This document shows, one piece after another, positions 4,384-32,000 of a stretch of DNA of 32,000 nt (position 1 is the first letter of the stretch; every line of letters starts with the position of its first letter). The translations under genes were made by a program, and so were the position numbers. The DNA is from Synechococcus sp. A15-24. Lineage in GTDB: Bacteria > Cyanobacteriota > Cyanobacteriia > PCC-6307 > Cyanobiaceae. Below the pieces are notes generated by a model. It searched no databases. It saw only the letters and a list, made by a program, of their open reading frames with translations, and had not been told where the DNA came from. Location: NCBI RefSeq assembly GCF_014280195.1, contig NZ_CP047960.1:570001-602000 (forward strand), given 5' to 3'.

Positions 4384-5187
4384 TCACCAAAGATCTGCAT
4401 TCAACCCCTCGTTTTCATCATTGTTATCGGATGATGAAATACTTTCTTCCTCAACTTCGTTGTCAAGGGCATCATCTTCTGGGATGTCCTTGATGTTGGC
4501 AATGTACCAGCTTTGACACGCCTCAAGGCTTCCGGTGTGAGCGATCTTGCCCTTGTGAAGAACAACACCATCTTGGCAGTGCTGCTGCAAAATGTTGGAA
4601 TCAGTGTGCGCCATGATCAATGACTTTCCCGTAAGACGCTCTCGCAGTGCCTGTTGAAGCTTCAGCAAACGCTCTGATGTGGCATCTGCTTTCCAGGCAA
4701 AAATCTTGGGAATGATATAAACATCAAAATCGAAAGCCAGGGCAACAGCGAGATAAAACCTTGCCCGCATGAACTTGTTGTAAACATGCAGAGGTTTATC
4801 AAAAAAACCTTCCTCAAGATCAGCCAAGGTTTGAATGATCTCGAGATCTTTGCTCCGCTGGCCGCCATGGCCATAGACACCTTGGAGGAAGGCGGCATTC
4901 TGTCGGCCCGTCAACGAACTCAGCAACCCGCCTCGAACACCGAGAGGCCAGCTGACGTTGGTGTTGATCGTTACCTGGCCTTTCTGTACAGATGCAACGC
5001 CGGCTGCGCACTCCAGAAAGGCATGGGCTTCTCGCATGGATGAGGAGATCACCCCCACCCGCTGACCTTCCAGTAATTGCCAAGTGACGTCATTGAGCAA
5101 ACGTTTGGTTGTTTCTTTGCTGCCGCTGACGTCTCGCACCACGCTCTCCAGGCTGAGGAGTGGTCGGGTTGGAGAAGCGAGCATCAT
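4384..5187 (-). CDS. kpsT: KpsT-like polysaccharide-export ABC nucleotide-binding protein with all catalytic motifs degenerate (pseudo-ATPase)
   Basis: 267-aa ORF with KpsT/Wzt-type blocks VSWPLGVRGGLLSSLTGRQN, YNKFMRARFYLAVALAFDFDVYII and SLIMAHTD. Walker A, the Q-loop Gln, the signature SGG and the Walker B D-E are all replaced. It has an acidic C-terminal tail and lower GC than its neighbours. Confidence 0.7.
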   Translation of the reverse strand: MMLASPTRPLLSLESVVRDVSGSKETTKRLLNDVTWQLLEGQRVGVISSSMREAHAFLECAAGVASVQKGQVTINTNVSWPLGVRGGLLSSLTGRQNAAFLQGVYGHGGQRSKDLEIIQTLADLEEGFFDKPLHVYNKFMRARFYLAVALAFDFDVYIIPKIFAWKADATSERLLKLQQALRERLTGKSLIMAHTDSNILQQHCQDGVVLHKGKIAHTGSLEACQSWYIANIKDIPEDDALDNEVEEESISSSDNNDENEGLNADLW

Positions 5188-6260
5188 CCTTGGGAGAAAC
5201 CCTTCTGGCCGGTCTTGACGGTATCGGCGATCAACTGGTCACGTAAAGCTTTGAGTTGACTGCTCTCCCAAGACTGCTGATCCGATGAGATGTCGGGTGG
5301 CAGGTTTTCGGGTTGTGGAGGGAAGAAGTCATCCCACTGCATCGTTGGCCAGAAGCATTGGCAGAAGTCCCTATTCGTCTGCCCGTAGCGATGCCGAATA
5401 GTCGCTCTAAGCTCAGCGTCAAGGCCGTTAAAGGGCTCTTCGGGCCAACGTCGCTCTTTAGCGAGGACCTCGATCGCGTTTCTCAATGCTTTCTTGTGTT
5501 GTCGAAGACATAGTGGGTTCTGTTCAGCACAATAGTTATTGATTGCTTGAGCCAAGGCCACGCCAAGGCGCCCTGGTTGCTGGTTCTTTGAGCGAGCCGG
5601 TAGAGATTGTTCGGCGAGTTTCGCCGGCAGTGGAAGCTCCGCAAGCAGTTGTTCATAGGGGTCAGGCCGTTCGTGGATCGATCGACCATTGAGGTTTTGT
5701 GCGGAACCAAAAGGGATCATTACAGTCTCGATTGAGGGTTCGTCCTTGAGCCAGCTGAACAACGTCATCAAGTCACACTCACTGATGGTGTTCTCGTTCA
5801 TCACTTTCGTCACATACGACTTGAAGTCGACATAAACTTTCAAACGTTTGACCAGTTGGGTGTAACGGGAGTTGAGGTAGCTCTCCTGGTCACGGATAAA
5901 GCCAACGATCTTTAAGCGCCATCCCTGAGACTGCAATTTTTTGGCTAACCAAAGCCCTCTGGGGTGGAGGTTGTCTTTCCCTGGTTTTGTAAGGACCCAG
6001 GACAAAGCTTCATGGGAGACAAGCAGTTGACACTCCATGGCGTCTGCCCGATCCAGCCAACGACGCCATTGTTTCCACGATCCTTTCTTGGTCGCTTGGA
6101 GCAGGATCTTGTCCTGGCGTCTTCGAGCAGGCATCAGTAAACCATGGCGTCGCAGCAGTCCACGGTTTTTGCGCAGGCGCTTCTGGATGTAGGTCGAGGC
6201 GGTCTTGTGCATGCCCACATGCAGCACCACAGTTCGCTCGACGGTTGGCTGCGCGGACAT
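5184..6260 (-). CDS. Sulfotransferase-like P-loop protein (hypothetical, polysaccharide-modification type)
   Basis: Start assigned to the internal ATG at 6260 (MSAQPTVERTVVLHVGMHKTASTYIQ...). The GMHKTAST motif resembles the PAPS 5-prime-phosphosulfate binding loop of sulfotransferase-family proteins. Its stop overlaps the kpsT-like start (ATGA at 5184-5187). The track ORF extends to 6722, but that part runs antisense to the HEAT gene and is Arg/Pro/Ser-rich. Confidence 0.55.
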   Translation of the reverse strand: MSAQPTVERTVVLHVGMHKTASTYIQKRLRKNRGLLRRHGLLMPARRRQDKILLQATKKGSWKQWRRWLDRADAMECQLLVSHEALSWVLTKPGKDNLHPRGLWLAKKLQSQGWRLKIVGFIRDQESYLNSRYTQLVKRLKVYVDFKSYVTKVMNENTISECDLMTLFSWLKDEPSIETVMIPFGSAQNLNGRSIHERPDPYEQLLAELPLPAKLAEQSLPARSKNQQPGRLGVALAQAINNYCAEQNPLCLRQHKKALRNAIEVLAKERRWPEEPFNGLDAELRATIRHRYGQTNRDFCQCFWPTMQWDDFFPPQPENLPPDISSDQQSWESSQLKALRDQLIADTVKTGQKGFSQG

Positions 6261-12188: not shown

Positions 12189-12240
12189 GGCGGCCTGGGC
12201 GTCTTTGTCATATTGAATCTCAGAGCCGCAGCGCCACTCC

Positions 12241-14071: not shown

Positions 14072-14757
14072 GGATTGCCTGCCCAGCGCACCACTTGATC
14101 CAGCACCGCCGGTGTCACCACGGCATGACCCTCATCAGGGCGGAGCAGGTGGTCTGTGCGCGACGGGGGCAGGGCCTGCAGCAGTTGCGCGCGGCTGTCC
14201 GGGCAGACAATCGCGTCCTGCTCCCCCTGCACCACCAGCACCGATGCTCCCTCAGGCCAGCTCTCCGGAAGGCTCTGGCACTGCTGAAGCAGGACCAAAT
14301 CATCCTGCAGCCGCTGGCGGCCAGAAGGATGCATGCCGCGTAGCAGCGGATTGTTCGGCAGGGCCGAGAGCGGCAGAGGCGAGGCGCAGCGGCTCAGGAA
14401 TTTCCGCAGCATCCCTAGTTCGTTCGACGTCCCCAGGCAGGAGGCCATGCCTTTGAGGGCCACTGCAAGCGCCCGGCCGGCCGCTCCTGCTGGAACAAAG
14501 GCTGCAAAGCCCGCCAGGCTCACCACGGCATCTGCTTGTTGAAGCACCGGCTCCGGCAGCAGATGGAGTCCCAGGGAGTGGGCGATCACGAGGCGCTGTC
14601 CCGGCAGCTCTGCCCAGCTGGGCTGGTGGGGCTCACGCTGTCCATAGCCCCGTTCAACGGCATCCCAGTGCCAGCCCAGGGCCTCAAACCGCTGCTGCCA
14701 GGCCCGCCAGACCGTTGCATCCCCAGCCCAACCATGGGCGGCGATCACCTGATTCAT
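14068..14757 (-). CDS. bioK: Alpha/beta-hydrolase, probable pimeloyl-ACP methyl ester esterase (BioK type)
   Basis: 229-aa ORF with an N-terminal HGW oxyanion-type motif and the nucleophile elbow AHSLG. It sits between bioF and bioC, which matches the BioK class described for Synechococcus and Prochlorococcus. ATGA overlaps on both sides. Confidence 0.65.
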   Translation of the reverse strand: MNQVIAAHGWAGDATVWRAWQQRFEALGWHWDAVERGYGQREPHQPSWAELPGQRLVIAHSLGLHLLPEPVLQQADAVVSLAGFAAFVPAGAAGRALAVALKGMASCLGTSNELGMLRKFLSRCASPLPLSALPNNPLLRGMHPSGRQRLQDDLVLLQQCQSLPESWPEGASVLVVQGEQDAIVCPDSRAQLLQALPPSRTDHLLRPDEGHAVVTPAVLDQVVRWAGNP

Positions 14758-19642: not shown

Positions 19643-21040
19643 TCAGCGGTGGGGTGAGGCCATCGTGGCTGGATCGATCAACTGGTCAAACCGTTCGCCT
19701 GTGATCGCTCCGGATTGCATCGCGGCCTCCCGAAGCGTCAGTCCGTCTCGGTGGGCGTGCTGGGCGATCGCACAGGCTTTTTCGTAGCCGATCTCCGGCG
19801 TCAAAGCCGTCACCAGCATCAGGGATCGCTCCACGTAGAACGCGATCCGGTCACGGTCTGGTTCCATCCCGCTCACCAGATTCAGCCGGAAACACCGGCA
19901 GGCGTCCTGCAGCAGACGGATCCCCTCGATCAGGTTGAAGCCGATCAGGGGCTTGTAGACGTTCATCTGCAGATGCCCCCCAGCACCAGCCGCCGCCACG
20001 GCTGCATCCATGCCGATCACCTGGGTGCAGACCATGGCCATGGCCTCGCACTGGGTTGGATTCACCTTGCCCGGCATGATTGAGCTGCCCGGTTCATTGG
20101 CGGGCAACAGCAGTTCCCCTAGCCCAGCCCTGGGTCCGCAGGCCAGCAGGCGGATGTCATTGGCGATGGTGAGCAGCGTCACGGCCAGACGCCGCAGCTG
20201 AGCCATGGTCTGCAACAGGGCGTCATGGCCCGCCATCACGGCAAACAGGTTGTTCGCCGGCTGAAAGTCTGATCCCGTTCGGCTGGCGAGTTCAGCACAA
20301 ACCTCGTCGGCAAATCGGTCCGGCGTGTTTAAACCACTGCCGACGGCTGTGCCTCCGAGTGGCAGAGCCAGAAGGTCTTGATGGGCTGTGGTCAGCCAAT
20401 GGACGCCGTCGCTGAGTCGGTCGCGCCAGGCGCTGACTTCATCGCTAAGTCGCAGCGGTACTGCGTCCTGCAGATGGGTCCGCCCGATCTTGATTATGTC
20501 CTGCCAGGCATCGGCCTTGGCATCGAGACTCGCGATCAGCCGCTTCAGCTCTGGCAGCAGATCCTGCTGCAGCTGTAGAGCCGCAGCCACATGGATCGCT
20601 GCCGGGAAAACGTCATTTGTGGACTGGGACCGGTTGATGTGGTCATTGGGATGGAGGGGACGGTGCGAGCCGAGGCTCTCTCCGGAGTGCAGAGCAGCGA
20701 GGTTGCTGATCACCTCATTCACGTTCATGTTCGTCTGCGTGCCGCTGCCGGTCTGCCAGACACTCAGAGGAAAGTGGTCATCGTGCTGGCCTGTGTGGAT
20801 CGCCTGGCCCGCCCGTTCGATCAAGGCCACCTGTTGGTCGTTCAACAGACCATGGCGACCGTTCACAGCCGCGCAGCACTGTTTGATCCGTGCCAGGGCA
20901 TGAATCAGCTCCGCTGGAATCTTTTGATGACCGATGGCGAAGTTGTTGAGGGATCGCTGGGTCTGGGCTCCCCAGAGCGCTGCAGCGGGGACGTCGACAG
21001 CTCCCATGCTGTCGTGCTCCTGCCTCATCGGTTGGCCCAT
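19643..21040 (-). CDS. fumC: Class II fumarate hydratase (FumC)
   Basis: Fumarate lyase signature GSSIMPGKVNPTQCEA and N-terminal DSMGAVDVPAAALWGAQTQRS. The start is ATG 21040 or 21028. The track start at 21085 would overlap the divergent neighbouring gene. Confidence 0.92.
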   Translation of the reverse strand: MGQPMRQEHDSMGAVDVPAAALWGAQTQRSLNNFAIGHQKIPAELIHALARIKQCCAAVNGRHGLLNDQQVALIERAGQAIHTGQHDDHFPLSVWQTGSGTQTNMNVNEVISNLAALHSGESLGSHRPLHPNDHINRSQSTNDVFPAAIHVAAALQLQQDLLPELKRLIASLDAKADAWQDIIKIGRTHLQDAVPLRLSDEVSAWRDRLSDGVHWLTTAHQDLLALPLGGTAVGSGLNTPDRFADEVCAELASRTGSDFQPANNLFAVMAGHDALLQTMAQLRRLAVTLLTIANDIRLLACGPRAGLGELLLPANEPGSSIMPGKVNPTQCEAMAMVCTQVIGMDAAVAAAGAGGHLQMNVYKPLIGFNLIEGIRLLQDACRCFRLNLVSGMEPDRDRIAFYVERSLMLVTALTPEIGYEKACAIAQHAHRDGLTLREAAMQSGAITGERFDQLIDPATMASPHR

Positions 21041-21074
21041 TTGAGAATGCCGATCCCAATCGACAATCGTATGC

Positions 21075-21638
21075 ATGCCCTTCACCTGCCTCGCTGAGGC
21101 CAGTCATTGCTGCACGGTTGTGCTGCCCGGTGGCGAGAAGGCTGTGCTGCGGAGGTTTTTCCGGCGCCCGAAGCGATCAATGGCCGCCCTGCTCACCCGA
21201 CAGCGGATGGACTGCAAGGGCGATGGTCGCTTCCTCTACGCATCGCGGCCGTTTCAGCTCCTGCGATTTGAAATCAGGCCAGAGGTGCTGTTTGCCGCGC
21301 AGTGGTCGGATCAAGCCAAGGGGCTGGAGATTGCCTTTGAGGACTGCCGGATTCATGGCCTTGGCGCCATGCAGAACGCCATCCGCTTCGAGTGCACGGC
21401 GTTGCTTGTCCCCAAGCAGGAGGGTGTGGAGGCTCAGGCTCGAGCGGTGGTTCTTTTGTCGTCGGACAGTCCGTTGACTGCGCTGCCGACTGGCCTGCGC
21501 CAACGTTTGGCTACGCAGGCGTTGCAGCTGGTGTTTGCGCGGCTGGAGCGACGCTGCCAGGGCGGGCTGAAACGGGCCTTGCTGGATTGGATTGCGGAGG
21601 ATGCAATGGGGCGTGCTGATCTCAAGCGTGAGAGTTAA
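21075..21638 (+). CDS. Conserved cyanobacterial hypothetical protein (DUF1997-like)
   Basis: 187-aa ORF with core-like GC content. The family name is recalled from sequence style (GRFLYASRPFQLLRFEIRPEVLFAAQW) and was not verified. Confidence 0.55.
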   Translation: MPFTCLAEASHCCTVVLPGGEKAVLRRFFRRPKRSMAALLTRQRMDCKGDGRFLYASRPFQLLRFEIRPEVLFAAQWSDQAKGLEIAFEDCRIHGLGAMQNAIRFECTALLVPKQEGVEAQARAVVLLSSDSPLTALPTGLRQRLATQALQLVFARLERRCQGGLKRALLDWIAEDAMGRADLKRES

Positions 21639-21661
21639 AGTCTTGCGACCAATCCGGTGAC

Positions 21662-22483
21662 ATGAGCAAAATGCGAGCCGGATTTGTCGATCAGATCAAG
21701 TCAAGACTTGATCGCCTTTGGTTGCAAATCAGAATCGTTCTCGCGCTTTCTGAGACGGAGTTCGTCCTTAGGGCTGAAAAGGGATCCTTCGGTGTTTGGG
21801 GTGTCTTGTTTGAACCCTTGGCGTTGATGATGACCTTGTTAGCACTCAGGATTTTGATTCGGTTGAAGTCCACTGATTTGCTGAGTCCAGTGATCTGGCT
21901 TGCTTGCGGGATCGCACTTCTATATATGTTCAGAAAAATAGGAATCAAGGCATTAACAGGTGTTTCGAAGCGTCAGAAATTCTTTTTTTACCGTCGAATT
22001 CGTCCCCTGGACACGTTGTTAGCGTCGGCCTTGATTGAAGCCAGAATTCATGGTTCTATTCTGGTTTTGGTCTTCATTAGTGTTTCGTTTTGGAGTTGGC
22101 AGTTCAAGCTGGATGATCCAGCACTTGTTCTTATTGATTTCATTCTCACGATTGCTCTTGGCTTGGGGGTTGGCATCAGTGCTTTGGTGATCGGTCACCG
22201 CATCCCGATTGTTAAAACATTGACGAAATTCGGGATTAATCGATTGTTGCTTTGGACCTCTGGAATTTTTTATGCTACCTACACACTTCCTGGGCCGATA
22301 CGTCCACTAGTGACGTGGAACCCACTGCTTCATTCGGTTGAGTTGCTGCGACATGGAATTAATGTGGCCTATCCAATACCTGGAATCAGTCTGCAGTATC
22401 TGTTTGCGTGTAGTTCACTGAGCTGCGGGTTTGGACTACTGTTCTATTTCCTCAACGAGGCTCTCCTGCTCGCCGATGACTGA
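21662..22483 (+). CDS. kpsM: Capsule/polysaccharide-export ABC-2 permease (KpsM-like)
   Basis: 273-aa six-helix ORF with KpsM-type blocks RPLDTLLASALIEARIH and WNPLLHSVELLRHGI. Confidence 0.82.
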   Translation: MSKMRAGFVDQIKSRLDRLWLQIRIVLALSETEFVLRAEKGSFGVWGVLFEPLALMMTLLALRILIRLKSTDLLSPVIWLACGIALLYMFRKIGIKALTGVSKRQKFFFYRRIRPLDTLLASALIEARIHGSILVLVFISVSFWSWQFKLDDPALVLIDFILTIALGLGVGISALVIGHRIPIVKTLTKFGINRLLLWTSGIFYATYTLPGPIRPLVTWNPLLHSVELLRHGINVAYPIPGISLQYLFACSSLSCGFGLLFYFLNEALLLADD

Positions 22484-23699
22484 ACAGCCGCGTGTCAAAC
22501 GGACGGCCGGAATTTTTCCGAAACTCGGAGAAGGAGCTTCCTGGTTCGGTAACTCCTCAGATGATCCCTCCAGTTCAGACACGTCACAGCTCCGCTCTGG
22601 GCTACAGGGATCGTTGAAAGGTCTGATGAATTCGGGAACCTTGGCTGCTGCTTTTGTCGTCCTCTCGGCGATGTATTGCTTTGGTGTGGGCCGTGATCGC
22701 TATCAAGCGACGTCCGAATTTGTCATCAAGCAGCCGCTGCCCCCGGCTTCAGCCTCCACCATGGTTCTTGGCTCGATGCAGAGCTCCAGCGTGCTCTCGT
22801 CTCTGGAGGACGGTCGTTATTTGCAGGTTTACCTGAAATCCAATGCTGTGAAGCAGGCGGTTTTCCCTGATCCATCTGCGTTTAAGAGGACCTATGCACC
22901 TCAGGCTCCAGATCAATGGAGTGGCTTACGTCGTGATGCCAATGACCAGGAGCAGCTTGCTTTCTTCCGCCAGCAGCTCGATGTGATTCCCCAGGAACTC
23001 TCAGGGACCATCGTTCTATCCACAAGTGCGTTCACCGCAGACGATGCCTATCGCCTCAATTCCGATCTTCTGAAACAGTCGCAGCGCTTCGTTAATGAGG
23101 TGAATCAGTCGATCAGTGCGGATCAACAGAAGTTTGCTGAGGAGCAGGTGGCCTTCGCGAAGACCCGTCTCACCACGGCCACCAATGCGCTTGAAGCTTT
23201 TCAGGATCTTTACGGACAACTGGATCCTTTGGGAGAACAGACGGCTACCACTGGCTTCATTACTGGCTTGGAATCTCGGCTGGTTGATCTGAAGGTTGAG
23301 GAAGCCAGTCTTCGACGCCAGTTCCGTGATCCCAATGCTCCAGAGGTTGCTTTTGTCGCAGACCAAGTACGTGAGCTCGAGCGACAGATTCAGGAAGAGC
23401 GCCAAAAGGCCGTTGGAGCCGGGGGACGTGATCTGAACAAACTTGCTACGCAAGCCAGTCGCCTCCAAGGAGATGTGGATTTTGCACGGGAATCCTTGAG
23501 TTCAGCCATGCGTGCGGCTGACAACAGCAGGATGGAAAGCCAGCGTCAGCTGAAATTCATCGTGATGCTGAGCAAGCCGCAGATGCCCACCGGCCCTGAA
23601 ACGTCATGGCGTTGGAAGGCCTTTCTGTCATGCCTGGGTGTTTTGATTGTGGTCTGGGGCGTTGGAGGATTCATGTTGACGGCATTACGGCGTTATTAA
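22476..23699 (+). CDS. kpsE: Capsule polysaccharide export inner-membrane adaptor (KpsE-like, PCP-3 type)
   Basis: ATG 22476 overlaps the kpsM stop by 8 nt. It has an N-terminal helix followed by RYQATSEFVIKQ, a long coiled central region, and a C-terminal LSKPQMPTGP block plus a final helix, as in KpsE. Confidence 0.75.
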   Translation: MTEQPRVKRTAGIFPKLGEGASWFGNSSDDPSSSDTSQLRSGLQGSLKGLMNSGTLAAAFVVLSAMYCFGVGRDRYQATSEFVIKQPLPPASASTMVLGSMQSSSVLSSLEDGRYLQVYLKSNAVKQAVFPDPSAFKRTYAPQAPDQWSGLRRDANDQEQLAFFRQQLDVIPQELSGTIVLSTSAFTADDAYRLNSDLLKQSQRFVNEVNQSISADQQKFAEEQVAFAKTRLTTATNALEAFQDLYGQLDPLGEQTATTGFITGLESRLVDLKVEEASLRRQFRDPNAPEVAFVADQVRELERQIQEERQKAVGAGGRDLNKLATQASRLQGDVDFARESLSSAMRAADNSRMESQRQLKFIVMLSKPQMPTGPETSWRWKAFLSCLGVLIVVWGVGGFMLTALRRY

Positions 23700-23705
23700 A
23701 GTTTT

Positions 23706-23722
23706 AGAGTATTCAATACTCT
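23706..23722. terminator. 17-nt perfect palindrome agagtattcaatactct, 7 nt after the kpsE stop; possible terminator hairpin or operator
   Basis: agagtatt and aatactct are exact reverse complements around a central c, followed by ttta. It lies in the 168-nt AT-rich convergent gap between kpsE and the 979-aa glycosyltransferase gene. Confidence 0.3.
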
Positions 23723-23867
23723 TTATACAGATCGGTTGTATTTTGTTTTTGAGTTCAATGGATAGCCATATTGGGTTTAAGGATAAGAATGATTCCCATA
23801 CGAGCTTATAGATTAAAGTTTCTTGCGGAACGTTTTTGTCTCGTTTGGTAAGTTGAGCGTTTATTAT

Positions 23868-26807
23868 TCAATTATCTTGCTGTACTCGTGTTAGCCCTTC
23901 AAGATAATTTTCGATTTGTCGCGCTAATCGACGATTGCCGCGACGAATGGTTTCCTTCCAGTCTTTAATGTCTACCTCATGAGGGTTGTCTCGAAGCAAG
24001 CTAACCTTGATGAAGGGGAACTCATGATCCTCAATGAGTGATTTCCACTCAGCATGAAGAATATTGCCATTGGCATTTTTTGAATAAAGGCTTTCAAGAT
24101 TCATCCCATTCTCTTTGAGAAGGACAGAGAGTCCGACCTCATAGTTTTTGACAATGCTGCGTTTTTCATCCCAACACATTATGTTGTCCCAGAATTGCCA
24201 GAATGACGGACAAGAAACAGCGCGACGTTTAAACATTAGAAATGCAGATTGTAGATGGGGTTCGTACATGAGATTGTCCGTTAAACCAATCACATCCGCT
24301 TGGCTATTGGCAAGGCGATTGATCAGGCCGGTGAGGGGACGAATCGGACCCCAAAAACTATCGTTACAGAGCAATACAGACTTTCTTTGATCGATTAGAT
24401 CGCGACAAAACCTTAGACCAGTCATCCAGCTGCCAAAGTCATATCCTTCATTACCTCGAATGATTAGAGCATCGCTAACATTCTTAAGAGCTGCCAAATC
24501 ATGGTGGTGTTGCAACAACGATGGTGTCGCAGCAACGACTTGAATATAAAAATGGCGTCTGTACTTCCTTAACAGATCAAGAATGTCAGAGCGTATTGGT
24601 TTGTCAGGATTGGAGTCATATTGCGCAAATATCAGTGGTATGCGTTGGTCATTTGTTCTTAATGAACGCCTCCAGGTGAATAACACTGCTTCTCGTGCTG
24701 GCCTGAGAGGCACCACTTGTTTCAGGAGTGGTTCGTATCTCGTTGAATGATGATGAAGGAGGGGGCTGATTAATGGATCACCTTTCGCATAAATTGTTTT
24801 GTGCTTTTGGCGAAGGCGTCCTGATTCGCGTTGATGCCGTGCCCAAGCATATCCAACTTGATCCTTCCCACGACTGAGTGACTCATAGTGAGTGATTGAT
24901 GCATGTGGCGTCACAACAATGGCACCCCCTGCATCCCTGAGTCTGAGGCAAAGGTCGACATCATTAAAGACAACGGCGAGTTTTTCATCAAATCCACCAA
25001 CGAGGTCAAAACACTCGGCTTTCACCATCAAACAGGCTGCAGAGGCTGCGGAGAACTCTTCTTGTGTTCTGAGAGGTAGAAGGCTGGCTATGACCTCTTG
25101 CTCGTTAAGGTGCTTACCTGGTTCAAGAACGCAACGACGCTCTCCTGGAATAATGACAACTCCTTGATGTTGAATGCTTCCATCGGGATAATTAAGCCTT
25201 GAGCCGACGGCAACAGTTTTAGGGTGTGCAAAGGGATCTAGAAGTGCATTAAGGACACTTCCGGAGATAAATTCGATATCATTGTTGAGGAATAGCAGAA
25301 AATCTCCTCTACATAATTGGCGGGCTTTGTTGTTTAGTCGTGAGTAATTAAATTCTTCGTCGAGACGAATGCATTGAATATTGTCTTCCTCGATAACATC
25401 TCTTATCCATTCTTTTGTTGAATTTTTTGCGCTTCCGTTGTCAATTAGAACGATTTCATAATTACGATTTTTACCGGCATTAAGCTTGATCGAATTAACA
25501 CATGCCCTAGTTAATTCTACTTGATCTCTAAATGGAATCAATATGGAAATCAAGGATGATTTATCTGTAGGACGAGACAAGTCATGGCATCCTACCTGTA
25601 ACGGGTTGGGCTTGATTCCCCTCTCTATTCCAAAATATTGTTTGGCATGCTGACTTCTGATACGACCGATCTCATCTAATTGCTGATCACTCAATGGACA
25701 TCTTTCCCTGGGCCAGCCTTGTTCAGGTATTGAAGGATTCTGAGAGCTTTGATGCTTGACGAGTGCTATATGACAGTGGGTCGTCTTGATCGGATCGCGA
25801 GTTGTCTGTAGAAGTATGTCCAGACGTAATGCTTCTAGGCAGGTATAACTTGGAGCAAATTTACACCGCCTTAATTGAGAATAAGGTAGCGTTAGAAGTC
25901 CTCCAATGCCTCCGCGGGTACACAGACGAATGGCTGACACTGGGCTTCGGTATTGCCGATGTTCATATCCGAGCCCATCATTCCAAAGTTGGTAAACAAT
26001 AATGTCATCGCAGGTCAACACAGTGTCCGCTTTTGTTTGTTGGAGTTGTCCCGCTAAAGCATGTAGGGCTCCATTGGCCAAGATATCGCTGGCATGACAA
26101 ATAGTGATCCACTCTGCAGAGTTTTCTCTTAGCAGATTTGATAAAGAATTCATATTTGTCAAAGAGCAAGAAACCACATCGTTCCAACCACCTACAACAG
26201 CTAGAGATTGTGCTTGCTGTGTTGTTCCATCAATCACTAAAAGTAGATGCTTTGTTGTTAAAATCAAGGATTTTATTGTGGGTAACTTTGTTGGATGATA
26301 TCGATCAAGGCCTGTCGCAACAGATTCTTGCCGACGGAAATGATCCCACCCCTCCGTCGCGAGATGTTCGAGCAAAGAGATTTTATTAGTGCGTCTGATT
26401 TGTCTCTGTGTTTTGTTCAGGCCTGCGTCGTAGGCTCCAATGGGTATTGGCGGTAGATCTCCGTAAAGAGACAGATGACCATTTAAAATCTGATTCAGCG
26501 TCCCACTCACTAGTAACTCATTGATTGATGAGAGGTGCCGATGTTGAAGTAGTAAGGGGATTTTTTGAATTCCATCTTCCAGTGGGTTCCATGTTGTTGG
26601 CTCCAACAGTAGGGAGATGGGTAAATATCTTGGGTTAAGTAGATGAGAGTCTAAATAATCGTGCAAGCTTGCAAGATCTGATTTGATTAAATTAAGATCT
26701 ATGCCGATACGTTTGAATAGTCTGAGTTGTTTTTGTATAGAGCCAACAGAGATTCTTCCCTTTCTCCAATCTTGAAAAGATTTTGACCAGTGATCGTTGG
26801 GATTCAT
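23868..26807 (-). CDS. 979-aa three-domain glycosyltransferase: degenerate GT2-like, GT2, and RgpF-like (rhamnan synthesis F) domains
   Basis: The central GT2 domain reads ISILIPFRDQVELTRACVNSI...IVLIDNGS...FLNNDIEF...GSIQHQGVVI...FNDVDLCLRL. The C-terminal domain, with NEGYDFGSWMTGL and LQSAFLMFKR, resembles the RgpF family. An N-terminal region of about 400 aa has GT2-like remnants but lacks the catalytic motifs. Confidence 0.8.
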   Translation of the reverse strand: MNPNDHWSKSFQDWRKGRISVGSIQKQLRLFKRIGIDLNLIKSDLASLHDYLDSHLLNPRYLPISLLLEPTTWNPLEDGIQKIPLLLQHRHLSSINELLVSGTLNQILNGHLSLYGDLPPIPIGAYDAGLNKTQRQIRRTNKISLLEHLATEGWDHFRRQESVATGLDRYHPTKLPTIKSLILTTKHLLLVIDGTTQQAQSLAVVGGWNDVVSCSLTNMNSLSNLLRENSAEWITICHASDILANGALHALAGQLQQTKADTVLTCDDIIVYQLWNDGLGYEHRQYRSPVSAIRLCTRGGIGGLLTLPYSQLRRCKFAPSYTCLEALRLDILLQTTRDPIKTTHCHIALVKHQSSQNPSIPEQGWPRERCPLSDQQLDEIGRIRSQHAKQYFGIERGIKPNPLQVGCHDLSRPTDKSSLISILIPFRDQVELTRACVNSIKLNAGKNRNYEIVLIDNGSAKNSTKEWIRDVIEEDNIQCIRLDEEFNYSRLNNKARQLCRGDFLLFLNNDIEFISGSVLNALLDPFAHPKTVAVGSRLNYPDGSIQHQGVVIIPGERRCVLEPGKHLNEQEVIASLLPLRTQEEFSAASAACLMVKAECFDLVGGFDEKLAVVFNDVDLCLRLRDAGGAIVVTPHASITHYESLSRGKDQVGYAWARHQRESGRLRQKHKTIYAKGDPLISPLLHHHSTRYEPLLKQVVPLRPAREAVLFTWRRSLRTNDQRIPLIFAQYDSNPDKPIRSDILDLLRKYRRHFYIQVVAATPSLLQHHHDLAALKNVSDALIIRGNEGYDFGSWMTGLRFCRDLIDQRKSVLLCNDSFWGPIRPLTGLINRLANSQADVIGLTDNLMYEPHLQSAFLMFKRRAVSCPSFWQFWDNIMCWDEKRSIVKNYEVGLSVLLKENGMNLESLYSKNANGNILHAEWKSLIEDHEFPFIKVSLLRDNPHEVDIKDWKETIRRGNRRLARQIENYLEGLTRVQQDN

Positions 26808-27712
26808 TGTTTTTTCTTGCTTGCCAGTTTGAGAAGTCGTCGTACTACTGCAGGGAATAGCCCCTCTTTGTCAGAAGTTATGACTTCTAATTGTCTTTTT
26901 TCTTCGCTCATGTTCGTTCCGGAATCTTCAGTTACAACCTCATCATGATCACCTCTTACATTATGATCTTCTATCTCTGGCTTATTAGATATCGGTTGAA
27001 CCGATAAGGATTCTTTTAACTCCTTATTCTCTTCTACAAGCAGCGCATATTTAGCTCTTTGTTTTCTTAGAGACTTTTGTAGTCGTTCGTTTTCCCGCGC
27101 AAGGTACTCATAGTTATTTTGGATCTGTGCTAATTGATTTAAATTATTTTTCAATTCTTCAAAACTTGCTTCGCGGTCTAGGTTGACCTCCCACCAGTCC
27201 ATGAGTGCGAGATCAATCAATGAGCCTTGGCTTAACCTTTGTAGATAGTTGCTGTCAGCTTCCAGACCAAACAAGCATGATTTCAGTTCTAGATCAAGGT
27301 AAATATCGATAATTCTTGGTTCTTTTCTCGCAATCTCTAGGCTTAGTAAGCTGGAAAGGGGCTTTGGGCTAGGGAAGTTAATACTTTTGTCTAGCTGTGG
27401 ATTCTCACCATTACAAAGTCTTATGATCGATGTACTGTCAAGCGAATTCAGGCGCCAGCTTGACGAAATATGTTTGTATTTTGCAGATAACAAGGATAAC
27501 TCTTCGTAATATGCGCGAATTTCATTGCATGTTGTTGCGGTGCTTTCTTCAAGTCGTTTTTGTTCAAGCACTTGATTGGGCGCCGAATAAATTAATAGCA
27601 CATTTTGAGGTTCATTGTCAGAATTGACTGATGTAAGTGGCTTGAGTCCTGCTTTGGCTAGTTTGTCTTTTAGAGATGAAAGAATATTTGTTGTCGAATA
27701 CCAGTACTGCAT
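26804..27712 (-). CDS. Hypothetical protein with a C-terminal coiled coil, ATGA-coupled to the 979-aa glycosyltransferase
   Basis: ATG 27712 (MQYWYSTTNILSSLKDK...). It has a heptad-like stretch FEELKNNLNQLAQIQNNYEYLARENERLQKSLRKQRAKYALLVEENKELKESL. Its stop overlaps the glycosyltransferase start at 26804-26807. No family recognised. Confidence 0.6.
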   Translation of the reverse strand: MQYWYSTTNILSSLKDKLAKAGLKPLTSVNSDNEPQNVLLIYSAPNQVLEQKRLEESTATTCNEIRAYYEELSLLSAKYKHISSSWRLNSLDSTSIIRLCNGENPQLDKSINFPSPKPLSSLLSLEIARKEPRIIDIYLDLELKSCLFGLEADSNYLQRLSQGSLIDLALMDWWEVNLDREASFEELKNNLNQLAQIQNNYEYLARENERLQKSLRKQRAKYALLVEENKELKESLSVQPISNKPEIEDHNVRGDHDEVVTEDSGTNMSEEKRQLEVITSDKEGLFPAVVRRLLKLASKKKQ

Positions 27713-27738
27713 TTGATTCCTGATCCTTACACGCAGTC

Positions 27739-27744
27739 TATAAT
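27739..27744 (+). promoter_or_regulatory. Consensus -10 hexamer TATAAT in the 54-nt divergent control region
   Basis: A perfect TATAAT lies 22 nt upstream of ATG 27767. A TTGATT -35-like hexamer at 27713-27718 has a 20-nt spacer, which is longer than ideal. Confidence 0.3.
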
Positions 27745-27766
27745 GCAGAACGCTCCTGAAGCTCAC

Positions 27767-29359
27767 ATGACGTCCAGTCTATGCCTGAGTGTTTTAGTAG
27801 GCTGTCCAGTTTCACCAACGCAGCTCCCGGAAGGCCCTTGTTTGATCATTGATGCTGAGTCAATCGATAAGAAGGAATTGATTGCTCAGGAATCCTTTTA
27901 TGCACATTATCGTGAATTGTCGGCCGACGATGTAGTACTTCTCAATCAGACGGTGATATCAGAATTTGATCATCAGATTGTTGAATGGCATAACTTCTCA
28001 GACAGGCGATTCAATGGACCTTCTCAATTATCAGAGTTTTCCGAACAATATCCAAATCTAAGATTAATTGAAAGCAGGAAGATTGAAGGTATCACTCTTT
28101 CTACTGTATTGGTAGATCAAAAAATTCTATCCGATTCACTTTCAACCTTTCAGCTCATTTTACGTGAGGGTGATCCGTTAGTTGCTCTTCAAAGTGCGAA
28201 GGAGTGGTTGGCCCGATGTACTCGTATCTCTTTGCGTGGTTTAGTCACTAGCTCTAAATCTCGTGAGGCTGCTGAGGCATTTTTGGGGGCATCGGGCTTT
28301 TGCAAATCATCGGTTGATTCATGTGTATGGACTCCTGAGCTTGAGGTGTCGTCACTGCATCTATCCTTAATCAGATGTGGTTTGTTGGCCTTATTTAATG
28401 CTGATGTCTATCGAAAATTATATCCTCAGACGAAGGAAATGACAGATGTTGAGCTGATTAACCACTGGTTATCACAGCCTGATTTTCGAGAGATCGCCAA
28501 GGAGATCGACAAGAATACCCACAATTCATTAGATAGAGATGGAATATTGGCCTTATTTAATGCTGATGTCTATCGAAAATTATATCCTCAGACGAAGGAA
28601 ATGACGGATGTTGAGCTGATTGACCACTGGTTATCACAGCCTGATTTTCGAGAGATCGCCAAGGAGATCGACAAGAATACCCACAATTCATTAGATAGAG
28701 ATGGAATATTGGCCTTATTTAATGCTGATGTCTATCGAAAATTATATCCTCAGACGAAGGAAATGACGGATGTTGAGCTGATTGACCACTGGTTATCACA
28801 GCCTGATTTTCGAGAGATCGCCAAGGAGATCGACAAGAATACCCACAATTCATTAGATAGAGATGGAATATTGGCCTTATTTAATGCTGATGTCTATCGA
28901 AAATTATATCCTCAGACGAAGGAAATGACGGATGTTGAGCTGATTGACCACTGGTTATCGCAGCCTGATTTTCGAGATGTATCTAAATTAATGAATGATG
29001 CTATTCAGCGTAACCCAACTCCTCTTGCTGAATTGACGGACCAAGATCCCGTACTTCAGTTGTTGCATAATATTTTCCCTTTTGATTTTTATCGCTCTCA
29101 AAGATCAGATCTCTCACAGATCTCCAACAGAGAGTTGATCCATCACTATTGGACAAATGGGCAATATGAGGGAATTGATCTCTCGGAATCAAATGTCAAA
29201 AATGTACTCGATAAAGATCAATCTTTGCAGGTCAACCGTCTCACGACTCGTATCCATGAACTAGAGCATCTTTTATCGTGCGCCAACGCACAGATTAGTG
29301 CAATGCAGAAGTTGATTGTTAGTTCACGAGATTCGGGAGCTGCCAATGAACAAGACTGA
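27767..29359 (+). CDS. Hypothetical protein with 3.7 tandem 54-aa repeats and a C-terminal coiled coil
   Basis: ATG 27767 (alternatives at 27743 and 27713). The layout is a roughly 205-aa N-domain, then repeats of LALFNADVYRKLYPQTKEMTDVELIDHWLSQPDFREIAKEIDKNTHNSLDRDGI, a degenerate copy (FPFDFYRSQRSDLSQISNRELIHHYWTNGQYEGIDLS), and a coiled coil (RLTTRIHELEHLLSCANAQISAMQKL). Confidence 0.7.
   Translation: MTSSLCLSVLVGCPVSPTQLPEGPCLIIDAESIDKKELIAQESFYAHYRELSADDVVLLNQTVISEFDHQIVEWHNFSDRRFNGPSQLSEFSEQYPNLRLIESRKIEGITLSTVLVDQKILSDSLSTFQLILREGDPLVALQSAKEWLARCTRISLRGLVTSSKSREAAEAFLGASGFCKSSVDSCVWTPELEVSSLHLSLIRCGLLALFNADVYRKLYPQTKEMTDVELINHWLSQPDFREIAKEIDKNTHNSLDRDGILALFNADVYRKLYPQTKEMTDVELIDHWLSQPDFREIAKEIDKNTHNSLDRDGILALFNADVYRKLYPQTKEMTDVELIDHWLSQPDFREIAKEIDKNTHNSLDRDGILALFNADVYRKLYPQTKEMTDVELIDHWLSQPDFRDVSKLMNDAIQRNPTPLAELTDQDPVLQLLHNIFPFDFYRSQRSDLSQISNRELIHHYWTNGQYEGIDLSESNVKNVLDKDQSLQVNRLTTRIHELEHLLSCANAQISAMQKLIVSSRDSGAANEQD
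28385..28978 (+). repeat. Tandem direct repeat, 162-bp unit x 3.67 copies, in frame within a CDS
   Basis: Units start at 28385, 28547, 28709 and 28871. Copies 2 and 3 are identical over 162 nt. Copy 1 differs at 2 positions (one synonymous, one N/D). Partial copy 4 (108 nt) differs at 1 position. Confidence 0.97.
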
Positions 29360-30647
29360 TCAGATACTTGCCTGTCGTGTCTTGGTGAATGATTATTTAT
29401 CAGGAAGATGGCAGAATGTTATCAATACAGTCTGTTCGCTGAACGATTCAGCGGAATTTGATAACTGTTCCACTCTTCGTGACCTCGCGCGACTTCTTTT
29501 AAGTTTATCTCCTTCAGAAATTTTGAAGGAGGATTGGAAGCCTGCTTTAGTGTCGCAGCGCGCCTCTTTTACTGAAGCACGTCTTCGGTACTGCGCAACT
29601 CATTTACTTGGTGCTTGCAATAATCTTGCGTGCAGAAATGATCAACAATATAGCTACAAGCTTCAATTATTTTGCATTAGCTTAAGCGACTTGCTCAAGT
29701 CTGATGCTGATTTTATACTTGTTTCTGATATATTTTCATTTTCCGACTCTTTCATATCCCTCAGTCAAAGTATTCGTATATTCTATTTGGCTTATAGGCG
29801 TCGTTTGCATGAGTCATTTCCTCAACAGATGACGGTTGTTTTAGGGATGCACCGTAGTGGAACATCAGCGTTAACTGGACTGCTTGGTAATTTAGGCATT
29901 TCAGGACCTAAGGATCCATTAGGTGCCACGGAAAATAATCTGTTGGGATACTGGGAATCAACTTCTTTAGTTACTTCTTCTGATCGATTTTTGTTATCTC
30001 AAAATAGCCATTGGTCCCAACTTTACCACTGGTCTTTTGGTTGGTGGAAATCAGCGGCGGCTCTAGACTGGATTGATTCTTATTGGCACGATTTGCAAAA
30101 TGCTTACAATACGAATGAACACTTCGTCTTGAAAGATCCTCGCCTTTGTATTCTGCTCGAGGGCATAATTCCATGCCTAGTTGATTCGCTACTGCAGTTA
30201 GATTTTTTGTTGATATTGCGCTCTCCTGTTGAGGTTGTTATGTCCTTGTGTAAGGCAGAGGAAATTTCTCCATACGATGCTCTTAATTTGTGGATCGGAT
30301 CAGTATTTCGCGCAGAATGTAGTTCACGTCCGTATTCTCGCAATATTCTCACGTACTACCAGCTCCTTAGTAGGCCACAAACTATTTTGGATTCATTCGG
30401 CTTGAACTGGAATCAAAGCTTTATGGAATCCAGGCTTGATCAAGCAACATCCTTTTTAAAGACTTCATTGTATCGAACCAAGGTTGATAACGTAAGGGAA
30501 TCGTTCGTGGCAACAAATCCTGAGTTGACTAGTCTTCTTGTTTTGGCTGAACAGATTTTTGATTGTTTTCAACATCCAACCCCAGACATTGCTCGTACAT
30601 CAGAGAAATTAAGGTACCAGTGGGTCGAAATCTTGGCAGATCGTTAG
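29346..30647 (+). CDS. Sulfotransferase-family protein with an N-terminal domain of about 170 aa and unknown function
   Basis: ATG 29346 overlaps the upstream stop by 14 nt. The PAPS-binding-loop-like motif VVLGMHRSGTSALTGLL is followed by YWES and later FVLKDPR (3-prime-phosphate binding-like), typical of bacterial sulfotransferase-family proteins. Confidence 0.65.
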   Translation: MNKTDQILACRVLVNDYLSGRWQNVINTVCSLNDSAEFDNCSTLRDLARLLLSLSPSEILKEDWKPALVSQRASFTEARLRYCATHLLGACNNLACRNDQQYSYKLQLFCISLSDLLKSDADFILVSDIFSFSDSFISLSQSIRIFYLAYRRRLHESFPQQMTVVLGMHRSGTSALTGLLGNLGISGPKDPLGATENNLLGYWESTSLVTSSDRFLLSQNSHWSQLYHWSFGWWKSAAALDWIDSYWHDLQNAYNTNEHFVLKDPRLCILLEGIIPCLVDSLLQLDFLLILRSPVEVVMSLCKAEEISPYDALNLWIGSVFRAECSSRPYSRNILTYYQLLSRPQTILDSFGLNWNQSFMESRLDQATSFLKTSLYRTKVDNVRESFVATNPELTSLLVLAEQIFDCFQHPTPDIARTSEKLRYQWVEILADR

Positions 30648-30675
30648 CAAACTCTTCTGTAAATAACTTTGCAGC

Positions 30676-32000
30676 TTACTGTCGCTGATAGTAATCTTTC
30701 ATCCTCCTGAAATTGGACCTCAGTTCAATTCCTTGCATAACGCTTTCTGGTGAAGTGTTGAAACTAAAATTTTCATGAATCTTTGTTAGATTTGGATTGT
30801 AAAATAAATCACTTGGTAGTTCCCCATTACTTTGAATGTCGTATTGATTTAGCATGAAGTTTATCTCTCTCTTGAACCGTTCTTTCTTCTCGGGAGAGTC
30901 CTCAGCTCCGCGGGATATTGATTCGTGGTGAAACAGCTCAGCATACGGGGTGAAAATATTTCGATATCCTCTTCCGTGAACCCTTATGCAAAAGTCGACA
31001 TCGTTAAATGCGATTGTGAGGTCTTGTTCATTGAGGCCGCCGACTTCGTTGAAAATTTCTCTGCGAATTGCGAGACATGCTGCAGTTACTGCTGTCATCT
31101 GTTGTACATATTGAAGCCTGTCGACATAACCAGGACTATCTCCCGGAAAGTATTTATGGGCATGACCGGCGACTTGGCCAATTCCAATAACTACGCCTCC
31201 ATGCTGAATAGTCCCATTTGAATAGTATAACTTTGCACCGACACATCCAACGTCTGGCCTTGAAGTGTGGGAAACAATTTCTTGGAGCCATTCGCCAGAT
31301 ATGACCTCGACATCATTATTGATCAAAGTAACAACATCTGCTTTTGATTGTCGGACTGCATAATTATTGATGGCCGAGTAGTTGAACTTCTTGTTGTATT
31401 TTATTATATTTATTTTTTCGCCATGCGCCCTCTTCAGTTTTTTGAATAGATTCTTCGTGGCGACTTCTTGGCTCTGGTTGTCAACAATTGTGATTGTGTA
31501 GTTCGTGTATGTCGTCTTGGCAATGATTGAATCCACTGCGAGATTCAATACCTCTGCTTGATCTCTAGTGGGGATGATGAGCTCAACAGATGGTGGCTTC
31601 TCTGATGTATGCCACTGGCAGGTGAATCGGTTCCTGGCCTTGATTCGGGCTGTCGCCCTTACGCCTCCACGTCGATGCTGCTCGTCTAGGAAATTCTGGA
31701 CTGCCTTGTGACCGCTTTCAGTTGTGTAATCCTTGCTGTCTGGGTTGCTGGCGGTTGATTCGGAATGTGCTCGCCAGTGGTACAAGACTCTAGGGATGTG
31801 AATAATTTGGTCCGGGGAAGATTCCAGGACAGTTCTGAGTGCAAGATCGTGATCTTGGCTTCCCTCGAAGCCAACTCGGAAGCCACCAATTTGTTTGAGG
31901 ATCTCCCTTCTGTAAACACCCAAGTGTGAGATAAAATTGTATGACAATAAAAGATCAATGTTAAAAGCTGGCTTGAAGTGTGGGCATGAACGCATTCCAT
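30676..32000 (-). CDS. Tandem-GT2 glycosyltransferase, N-terminus beyond the window edge
   Basis: The visible N-terminal part is the tail of one GT2 domain (GGFRVGFEGSQDHDLALR...IHIPRVLYHWR). A complete second GT2 domain follows (VELIIPTRDQAEVLNLAVDSI...ITIVDNQS...LINNDVEV...GTIQHGGVVIGIG...FNDVDFCIR). The frame is still open at 32000. Confidence 0.85.
   Translation of the reverse strand, partial: GMRSCPHFKPAFNIDLLLSYNFISHLGVYRREILKQIGGFRVGFEGSQDHDLALRTVLESSPDQIIHIPRVLYHWRAHSESTASNPDSKDYTTESGHKAVQNFLDEQHRRGGVRATARIKARNRFTCQWHTSEKPPSVELIIPTRDQAEVLNLAVDSIIAKTTYTNYTITIVDNQSQEVATKNLFKKLKRAHGEKINIIKYNKKFNYSAINNYAVRQSKADVVTLINNDVEVISGEWLQEIVSHTSRPDVGCVGAKLYYSNGTIQHGGVVIGIGQVAGHAHKYFPGDSPGYVDRLQYVQQMTAVTAACLAIRREIFNEVGGLNEQDLTIAFNDVDFCIRVHGRGYRNIFTPYAELFHHESISRGAEDSPEKKERFKREINFMLNQYDIQSNGELPSDLFYNPNLTKIHENFSFNTSPESVMQGIELRSNFRRMKDYYQRQ

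Follow-up and report, generated by a model that had tools for sequence, protein, structure and literature searches.

We analyse a 32,000-nt stretch of the Synechococcus sp. A15-24 genome (contig NZ_CP047960.1, positions 570,001 to 602,000; the window), which from base 21639 to its end carries a block of GC-poor genes for the assembly and export of a surface glycan. This block likely provides the central genes for making and exporting a surface polysaccharide of the Kps type (group-2-capsule-like) by the ATP-binding cassette (ABC) transporter pathway. The Kps system extends beyond the block, as a second, smaller dip in GC content at 4.0-6.5 kb carries a KpsT-like gene. This islet belongs to the same system as the block at 21.6 kb, even though it lies 16.5 kb from kpsM.

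Composition and extent of the block

In 1-kb windows, the GC content is 0.62-0.64 up to 21 kb (including 17-21 kb), steps down directly after base 21638 to 0.49-0.54 in the kpsM/kpsE region (21.5-23.5 kb), and stays at 0.39-0.45 beyond 23.5 kb, as far as the window reaches. The GC content at third codon positions (GC3) is 0.72-0.77 for the core genes bioA, SBF, helicase, fumC and DUF1997; it drops to 0.50-0.56 in kpsM and kpsE and further, to 0.35-0.45, in the next five genes. Both measures bear out the drop that the first-pass annotation of this DNA had placed after base 21638. The islet at 4.0-6.5 kb (GC 0.53) sits between a sodium:solute symporter gene and a HEAT-repeat gene. The same annotation had reported no integrase, transposase or tRNA at the left edge, and we find none either: the tRNA scan of the whole window is empty, and searches with hidden Markov models (HMMs) find no integrase or transposase domain among the open reading frames (ORFs) of the block. 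An Rfam scan of the window finds no family, and promoter and terminator scans find nothing over chance.

The block runs past the window, as had been proposed, since the frame of the final ORF stays open up to base 32000 and continues off the window. What follows past 32 kb is inferred from the orthologous WH8102-type locus L086, which is 94% identical over the shared part of this last gene, a tandem-GT2 glycosyltransferase. In L086, the low-GC block comprises kpsM to the tandem-GT2 gene only, 10.9 kb in total, and the rml genes behind it have a core-like GC3 of 0.64-0.75. Because the L086 low-GC block stops at the start of the tandem-GT2 gene, the block in A15-24 should end at about 33.05 kb in window coordinates, some 1 kb beyond the window and within an operon.

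The same annotation had assigned the content of the block to glycan export and assembly; HMM searches confirm KpsM, KpsE, the GT2+RgpF enzyme and the GT2 enzyme, and an ABC-transporter-type (Kps-like), compositionally atypical block is supported. As a description of the whole system, the interval 21639-32000 falls short, as it overlooks both the KpsT-like gene and the rml operon beyond the window.

Export genes

We compare the block with two clade III loci (L081 and L086), three more diverged loci (L001, L082 and L085) and one clade I locus (L003), of which L001 and L003 are among the matches listed in a scan of a genome collection for fumC, the others listed being mostly bacteria unrelated to these. 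The last gene with core-like GC encodes a DUF1997 protein (21075..21638, + strand; PF09366, E=3e-12), which adjoins kpsM in 5 of 5 related loci and is not found beside fumC in the clade I locus.

The first gene of the block, kpsM (21662..22483, + strand), encodes a 273-aa ABC-2 type permease with about six hydrophobic segments. It matches NF050053 (E=2e-29, under the equivalog cut-off) and aligns over its full length with the KpsM of the solved KpsMT-KpsE complex (8tsh_C, E=3e-20). Its WH8102 orthologue is SYNW0639, which Pereira et al. 2015 list as a KpsM/Wzm homologue, together with SYNW0404 and SYNW0420 as homologues of outer-membrane export (OPX) proteins in WH8102. The next gene, kpsE (22476..23699, + strand), encodes a 407-aa periplasmic adaptor of the polysaccharide copolymerase 3 (PCP-3) type. 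It matches the BexC/CtrB/KpsE family (TIGR01010, E=2e-50), and residues 62-405 align with the solved KpsE (8tsh_E, E=7e-35); hydrophobic segments are found at the N-terminus (54-72) and the C-terminus (383-401). The kpsE start codon, picked by orthologue comparison, overlaps the kpsM stop (ATGACTGA), which indicates translational coupling. There is no nucleotide-binding subunit in 21639-32000, nor within the cluster in any related locus.

The kpsM-kpsE segment has diverged more than its surroundings. Between the window and L086, the nucleotide identity is 70-83% for kpsM-kpsE (21640-23640), 92-97% for fumC/DUF1997 and 88-96% for most genes after kpsE, and the number of synonymous substitutions per site (dS) is 1.2 for kpsM against 0.16-0.26 for its neighbours. 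This divergence peak within clade III suggests that the export segment may have been replaced through recombination. The three diverged lineages carry an extra ORF of about 264 aa without family match between kpsE and the GT2+RgpF gene (L001 930-1724; L082 4258-5049; L085 4401-5195); at that position clade III has just a 168-bp gap (window 23700-23867).

Glycosyltransferases and rhamnose supply

The largest enzyme of the block is a 979-aa glycosyltransferase (23868..26807, - strand) without transmembrane segment. It combines a GT2 domain at residues 421-645 (PF00535, E=2e-17) with an RgpF-like domain at residues 771-941 (PF05045, E=3e-22), both over the gathering score. The RgpF match scores 79 bits for a cut-off of 25, and it covers profile positions 14-200 of 503 only. 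The enzyme is annotated as “O-antigen biosynthesis protein” (QNJ28387.1). Its N-terminal 415 aa, which had been described as GT2-like, belong to no family we could find: there is no Pfam match, and hhalign gives 0.2% probability against GT2, so that description is dropped.

The tandem-GT2 gene (30676..32000, - strand) is cut by the window end, which leaves the C-terminal 439 aa of the protein with one GT2 domain at residues 135-355. Its orthologue in L086 (11331-13709) has 792 aa, with GT2 domains at 223-412 and 480-737. The gene order in L086 is helicase, fumC, DUF1997, kpsM, kpsE, GT2+RgpF, coiled-coil protein, repeat protein, sulfotransferase-like protein, tandem GT2, rmlB, rmlD, rmlC, rmlA, a PEMT-like methyltransferase and then core genes. 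The tandem-GT2 start overlaps the rmlB stop by 1 nt. RmlA, RmlB, RmlC and RmlD are all over their curated equivalog cut-offs, and the four genes form one operon with the tandem GT2. An RgpF domain in the window (PF05045) is thereby paired with a supply of deoxythymidine-diphosphate (dTDP) rhamnose in L086 (RmlA-D). Because rmlBDCA share an operon with the tandem GT2 and the 979-aa enzyme carries an RgpF domain, the product is most likely a rhamnose-rich polymer, with rhamnosyltransferase as the predicted activity of these enzymes.

Sulfotransferase-like, repeat and coiled-coil proteins

Three more genes of the block form a trio that recurs in other genomes. The 433-aa protein (29346..30647, + strand) has a helical N-terminal domain of about 155 aa, followed by a predicted sulfotransferase domain (about 155-433) of the type dependent on 3'-phosphoadenosine-5'-phosphosulfate (PAPS). 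Its family counts more than 1800 proteins, and 12 of 25 diverse members match Sulfotransfer_3 (PF13469). The motifs GMHRSGTSAL, KDPR and R..P.EV..SL are invariant in the family; GMHRSGTS and R-x-P-x-E-V-x-x-S, together with the predicted fold, agree with what characterises a PAPS-dependent sulfotransferase, namely a 5'-phosphosulfate-binding loop, a 3'-phosphate-binding motif and the sulfotransferase fold. The AlphaFold2 model has a mean predicted local distance difference test score (pLDDT) of 89, and its 35 best matches in the PDB are PAPS-dependent sulfotransferases or the retinol dehydratase with a sulfotransferase fold. At the top is Stf1 (2zq5, 2.6e-4), followed by the OLS/CurM sulfotransferases and TPST2, with target-normalised TM-scores of 0.38-0.50; a few P-loop enzymes of other kinds turn up far down the ranking. 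UniProt names the orthologue in WH8102, SYNW0644, a “Sulfotransferase family protein”, and the protein is named “P-loop NTPase” in RS9915. The first-pass annotation had called this gene a sulfotransferase. The window protein itself has no Pfam match and no sequence match in the PDB; the assignment stands on family, motifs and predicted fold, which make a PAPS-type sulfotransferase a credible identification. Many metagenomic homologues of the gene are found at 85-97% identity. Sulfation of the product is probable, with the polymer as the presumed acceptor of the predicted sulfotransferase.

The enzymes of the cluster have no N-terminal signal peptide, and the lone hydrophobic stretch among them is internal (residues 267-285) and falls inside the predicted sulfotransferase domain; assembly in the cytoplasm fits both features.

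The 530-aa repeat protein (27767..29359, + strand) has three parts: an alpha/beta N-terminal domain of about 215 aa, a run of 54-aa repeats (3.7 copies) and a coiled coil at the C-terminus. At the DNA level, Tandem Repeats Finder reports a 162-bp period at 28385..28977 with 3.7 copies, 99% identical and in frame. Its gene and the 433-aa gene are translationally coupled, and the repeat-protein gene is always paired with a sulfotransferase-like gene. The family has 110-141 clusters, from picocyanobacteria only as far as the names go, and the WH8102 orthologue is SYNW0643. Orthologues of 376, 430, 484 and 530 aa correspond to 1-4 whole 54-aa copies in strains and metagenomes: WH8102-type strains have 1, BOUM118 and A18-40 have 2, and A15-24 has nearly 4. 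The protein has no Pfam family, no signal peptide and no transmembrane segment. We tried two other identities for it, and neither is supported. As a degenerate FkbM-like methyltransferase, the N-terminal domain (AlphaFold2 model, pLDDT 83) finds nothing below E=0.1 in a Foldseek search of the PDB, and among 34 members there is one methyltransferase-type match, at chance level (PF07757, E=0.04). As a secreted protein or lipoprotein (database records say “putative conserved secreted protein”, and there is an LVGC motif), it has no signal-like hydrophobic segment, and the N-terminal LVGC lies in a conserved predicted beta-strand.

The third member is a 302-aa coiled-coil protein (26804..27712, - strand) with a conserved N-terminal domain of about 200 aa followed by a coiled coil. 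Its gene stop overlaps the start of the 979-aa gene (ATGA), so that the two are translationally coupled. The protein matches no named family and has weak coiled-coil matches only, at residues 190-270. Among 1.84 billion proteins, we find 140 representatives of its family, in which the N-terminal domain is nearly always at or near the N-terminus. The larger members range from about 200 to 834 aa, and a Cyanobium M30B3 homologue has 1211 aa; the C-terminal tails match coiled-coil families only, with no enzyme domain fused. Both the coiled-coil and the tandem-repeat protein are therefore present as had been described, without a named family.

The trio, made up of the coiled-coil protein, a homologue of the repeat protein and a sulfotransferase-like protein, is also found beside gltB in Cyanobium-type genomes (L083 9066-13464 and L087 6176-12279), where an RgpF enzyme is present without kpsM or kpsE; L083 also has rml genes. 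In L083 the genes for the repeat-protein homologue and the sulfotransferase-like protein are duplicated in tandem, and in L087 the coiled-coil protein has 1211 aa. We regard the trio as a putative functional module acting on the rhamnan, one that could set the chain length or cap the chain. Adjacency, translational coupling and variable coiled-coil length are circumstantial signs that it could work as a ruler.

The KpsT-like protein and its neighbour

The islet at 4.0-6.5 kb holds two genes on the same strand. The KpsT-like gene (4384..5187, - strand), 16.5 kb upstream of kpsM, encodes a 267-aa nucleotide-binding subunit with degenerate ATPase motifs; its annotation is that of the ATPase component in a transporter for polysaccharide efflux. 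Its best match among solved structures is the KpsT of the KpsMT-KpsE complex (8tsi_A/8tsh_A, E=4e-20), with residues 38-234 aligned to 28-221 of 234; against NCBIfam, it matches Wzt, VexC and TagH with E-values from 1e-12 to 1e-8. All three ATPase motifs are replaced. The Walker A motif, GRNGAGKST in canonical KpsT, reads SSSMREAHA; the signature YSSGM reads YNKFM; and the Walker B motif with the catalytic glutamate, LIDE, reads IIPK. There is no other P-loop in the protein. In 6 orthologues with 60-92% identity, the replaced signature and Walker B are identical and the replaced Walker A varies only as S[SAK]S[MI][RQ]EAHA. The ratio of nonsynonymous to synonymous substitution rates (dN/dS) is 0.09-0.23. 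Because the replaced motifs are invariant or nearly so and the gene is under purifying selection, we read the KpsT-like protein as a maintained pseudo-ATPase and not as a decaying gene. The C-terminus (4384-4480) is a strongly acidic tail of about 35 residues (...DENEGLNADLW) that is kept in orthologues and absent in the solved KpsT. The subunit carries no carbohydrate-binding module.

The second gene (5184..6260, - strand; start codon corrected by orthologue comparison) encodes a 358-aa protein. It overlaps the kpsT-like gene by ATGA in the window, co-directional and so translationally coupled, and it lies directly upstream of it in each of the loci L089 and L091-L095. The motifs GMHKTASTY ... 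IRDQESYLNS resemble the two PAPS-binding motifs, and GMHKTAST and IRDQESYLNS are conserved. Searches of Pfam, NCBIfam and the PDB give no match, and hhalign against the family of the 433-aa sulfotransferase-like protein gives a weak 16% probability, at the P-loop. By its motifs, we propose the protein as a second sulfotransferase-like candidate. In L093, whose KpsT-like protein is 60% identical, an extra ORF adjoining the symporter gene (3958-4521) has the carbohydrate-sulfotransferase motifs PKCANTS ... RDPLSRLQS.

Conservation and distribution

Proteins more than 90% identical to window proteins are found in WH8102, WH8103, BOUM118, A18-40 and RS9915, all named clade III strains. We assign A15-24 to clade III, and the block is orthologous to WH8102 SYNW0638-0649. 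The same genes in the same order stand beside fumC/DUF1997 in 5 of 5 related loci examined. In L081 and L086, the proteins of the block have 75-94% amino-acid identity, against 92-96% for fumC. In L001, L082 and L085, fumC is 78-80% identical; L001 is named “Cyanobium sp. MED843”, and the kpsM genes of L001 and L082 fall into one 90% cluster with the Synechococcus metagenome-assembled genome BS307-5m-G38. Between lineages, amino-acid identity is graded along the cluster: 82-84% for kpsM, 68-76% for kpsE, 68% for the tandem GT2, 56-62% for the GT2+RgpF enzyme, 40-41% for the coiled-coil protein, 33-38% for the sulfotransferase-like protein and 29-33% for the repeat protein. The orthologous clusters are also GC-poor, 0.45-0.55 against 0.60-0.66 in their flanks. 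All genes tested have dN/dS of 0.04-0.27, which indicates purifying selection. Contig L003 of clade I, in which fumC groups with that of WH8016, has purB directly after fumC and lacks DUF1997 and the whole cluster.

Because gene order is conserved, divergence is graded, selection is purifying and the low GC is shared, we conclude that the block is a long-resident accessory locus, patchy among clades, and not a recent or strain-specific insertion. It is old and vertically maintained in clades III, WPC1 and part of clade II, and it has kept its low GC, as many polysaccharide loci do. The first-pass annotation had set the block in the context of hypervariable cell-surface islands, and this framing does not hold: the same gene order is found in clade III relatives (at 75-94%) and in three further lineages, and metagenomic homologues are abundant. 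The synteny comparison it had proposed around fumC/DUF1997 shows the gene set in all five related loci, against an island; of the marks of a recently transferred island, the block has the atypical composition.

The cluster has been noticed before. A “Kps cluster” common to clades III and WPC1 is described by Doré et al. 2020 (PMC7522525), whose Table S4 contains kpsT, kpsE, kpsM, kpsD2, kpsC, kpsS, an acyltransferase, a glycosyltransferase, fabF2, two hypotheticals and DUF1997 (CK_00002307). An “O-antigen biosynthesis protein”, a “P-loop NTPase” and a “carbohydrate sulfotransferase” have the same presence/absence pattern in that study; the pattern also extends to 7 of 10 strains of clade II and leaves out clade I and Prochlorococcus (PMC7522525). 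The first two are the names carried by the 979-aa enzyme and by the RS9915 sulfotransferase-like protein. Our literature searches found no experimental work on the locus, and the WH8102 locus tags led to an unrelated mention only. Of the claim that the system is uncharacterised and novel, the first half stands and the second does not: the system falls within the Kps-type capsule pathway and is uncharacterised, but it had already been catalogued through comparative genomics. New here are the rhamnose link, the fold-level support for a sulfotransferase, the conserved degenerate KpsT, the polymorphism in repeat number, the variable coiled-coil partner and the kpsM-kpsE divergence peak.

Core genes that flank the cluster show raised divergence. 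The fumC gene (19643-21085) is 65% identical to the clade I copy in L003, where the adjacent helicase is 85% identical; in L001, identity falls toward the cluster, from 94% for the helicase to 80% for fumC and 64% for DUF1997. Further upstream in the window, 10902-15902 holds a biotin-synthesis-like run of core-like composition that looks ordinary, with a class-III aminotransferase, a dethiobiotin-synthetase-like AAA_26 protein, a methyltransferase, a hydrolase and a class-I/II aminotransferase.

Proposed mechanism and alternatives

In the mechanism we propose, rmlABCD just past the window (as placed by the orthologous locus) would provide dTDP-L-rhamnose. Two multidomain glycosyltransferases, soluble and membrane-associated, namely the 979-aa enzyme with GT2 and RgpF domains and the tandem GT2 of 792 aa, would use it to assemble a polymer rich in rhamnose at the inner membrane, on its cytoplasmic side. 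The polymer would then be modified in the cytoplasm by one or two sulfotransferase-like proteins of the PAPS type, working with two picocyanobacteria-specific coiled-coil partners. By homology, the finished polymer would leave through KpsM and KpsE with the KpsT-like subunit, and KpsD2, KpsC and KpsS would be encoded elsewhere in the genome, as the literature indicates (PMC7522525). Translational coupling joins kpsM to kpsE, the coiled-coil gene to the 979-aa gene, the repeat-protein gene to the sulfotransferase-like gene and the 358-aa gene to the kpsT-like gene, which supports the operon structure.

Several observations weigh against this proposal. The sole KpsT homologue in the stretches we read has no working Walker A, Walker B or signature motif, so that ATP-driven export by KpsM with the KpsT-like subunit alone seems doubtful. 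Neither the window nor the 10-kb flanks of the relatives L085 and L086 contain KpsD, KpsC or KpsS, and the kpsD2/kpsC/kpsS link comes from a published presence/absence table (PMC7522525). The lipopolysaccharide (LPS) of WH8102 is reported to lack keto-deoxyoctulosonate (Kdo) (PMC4515613), which fits poorly with a poly-Kdo anchor made by KpsC/KpsS. The rml link is drawn from L086 and not from A15-24 itself, and the second sulfotransferase candidate, the 358-aa protein, is backed by motifs.

A product other than a capsule would be a rhamnose-containing O-antigen or outer-core extension of the LPS, built on polyprenol and ligated to the lipid A-core after export. The name of the 979-aa enzyme hints at it, rml and RgpF-type enzymes are typical of ABC-transporter-dependent O-polysaccharides, and the matches of the KpsT-like protein include Wzt, RfbE and TagH. 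We think it unlikely, as permease and adaptor match KpsM and KpsE specifically, and a PCP-3 adaptor is a feature typical of capsule systems and not of Wzm/Wzt O-antigen systems. The genes kpsC, kpsS and kpsD2 have the same phyletic pattern (PMC7522525). The sugar data can be read both ways. According to a review of cyanobacterial LPS (PMC4515613), the LPS of both WH8102 and CC9311 lacks Kdo and heptose, and LPS preparations of WH8102 (clade III) contain rhamnose and those of CC9311 (clade I) do not, which agrees with contig L003 of clade I having no such locus; a single rhamnose is all that is reported for WH8102. The exporter might instead be vestigial or repurposed, with a dead KpsT, a KpsM/KpsE pair that no longer exports, and a glycosyltransferase-sulfotransferase module that decorates a surface protein or lipid. 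The loss of all ATPase motifs in the only KpsT homologue seen would fit, as would the module without kpsM/kpsE beside gltB in the Cyanobium-type loci L083 and L087. Yet selection on kpsM, on the enzymes and on the KpsT-like gene is purifying (dN/dS 0.04-0.27), the invariance of the degenerate motifs speaks for a retained function, and kpsM and kpsE are coupled and 68-84% conserved between lineages. Moreover, A15-24 has neither swmA nor swmB (PMC7522525), so that the motility proteins cannot be the acceptor, and we regard a vestigial exporter as improbable. As to origin, a recent, strain-specific hypervariable island, swapped under phage or grazer pressure, would account for the strongly atypical GC and GC3 (0.35-0.56 against 0.72-0.77), the patchy occurrence (absent from clade I and Prochlorococcus), the 29-41% identity of the central genes between lineages, the drop to 70-83% nucleotide identity at kpsM-kpsE between flanks at 92-97% in clade III, and the variable repeat number. 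This idea is largely refuted and we give it very little credence: every related locus that we examined has the same gene order, clade III proteins are 75-94% identical, mobile-element marks and tRNAs are missing, the right edge falls inside an operon shared with rml genes of core GC, metagenomic homologues at 85-97% are plentiful, and orthologous clusters of other lineages are GC-poor as well.

Within the Kps-type capsule system, we advance a more specific idea only tentatively, and it may well be wrong. The dedicated subunit of the exporter could be a conserved pseudo-ATPase, with its motifs lost, under purifying selection and co-translated with a sulfotransferase-like protein, that is energised by an unlinked canonical partner in a heterodimer or by another mechanism. 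A ruler made of separate subunits, the variable coiled-coil protein and the repeat protein with its 1-4 copies, could then set the chain length or the capping of the sulfated rhamnan.

If the capsule-type assignment is right, a complete-looking capsule-type system persists in clades III and WPC1 and in part of clade II, the clades that dominate in warm, phosphorus-poor waters, despite the loss of most exopolysaccharide genes reported for the marine clade (Pereira et al. 2015). The polymer would bear on phage adsorption and grazing as well as on aggregation and carbon export, and a charge based on sulfate rather than phosphate would suit phosphorus-depleted waters. A conserved KpsT without ATP-handling motifs is also an unexpected natural variant of a newly solved system. 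WH8102, which has the orthologous locus, is genetically tractable.

Comparison with known systems

The closest comparison is with the group 2 Kps system of Escherichia coli K1/K5 (the 8TSH series). The KpsM, KpsE and KpsT homologues match the solved subunits nearly full-length, in both systems a low-GC biosynthetic region adjoins the export genes, and synthesis is cytoplasmic there and predicted to be so here. Homologues of kpsC, kpsS and kpsD occur in the same genomes (Doré et al. 2020, PMC7522525). Unlike the group 2 system, the Synechococcus system has a KpsT without Walker A, Walker B and signature and spreads its export genes over at least three loci; its sugar is probably rhamnose, and sulfated, the LPS of its host is reported to be free of Kdo, and it has two extra coiled-coil proteins.

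The rhamnan synthesis of Rgp type, including that of Streptococcus mutans, is known along with other ABC-transporter-dependent polyrhamnose systems. These resemble the Synechococcus block in the RgpF domain, rmlABCD, the multidomain GT2 enzymes and the ABC-2 permease. They differ in that the match here covers the first ~200 of 503 RgpF positions only, in a protein that fuses them to GT2 and a 415-aa domain, in that the exporter is KpsM/KpsE-like and not RgpC/RgpD-like, and in the presence of a sulfotransferase.

Among cyanobacteria, synechan (xss) is reportedly a sulfated exopolysaccharide of Synechocystis sp. PCC 6803, said to have been described by Maeda et al. in 2021 as made by a Wzx/Wzy pathway encoded on a megaplasmid. 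Compared by description only, both are cyanobacterial surface polysaccharide loci with sulfotransferases, but the Synechococcus system is of the ABC-transporter (Kps) type, chromosomal and linked to rhamnose.

For the putative ruler, two coiled-coil proteins that set the chain length of O-antigens made by the ABC-transporter route serve as models: WbdD of E. coli O9a and WbbB of Klebsiella O12. In rulers of this type, the chain-terminating enzyme is tied to the polymerase through the coiled coil, and the cap at the chain end is what the exporter recognises. By analogy, the Synechococcus block may share with them a coiled-coil gene coupled to a polymerase-like gene, a coiled coil of variable length and a modifying enzyme that could cap the chain. 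In contrast to WbdD and WbbB, coiled coil, modifier and polymerase are separate proteins here, and the KpsT-like subunit has no carbohydrate-binding module.

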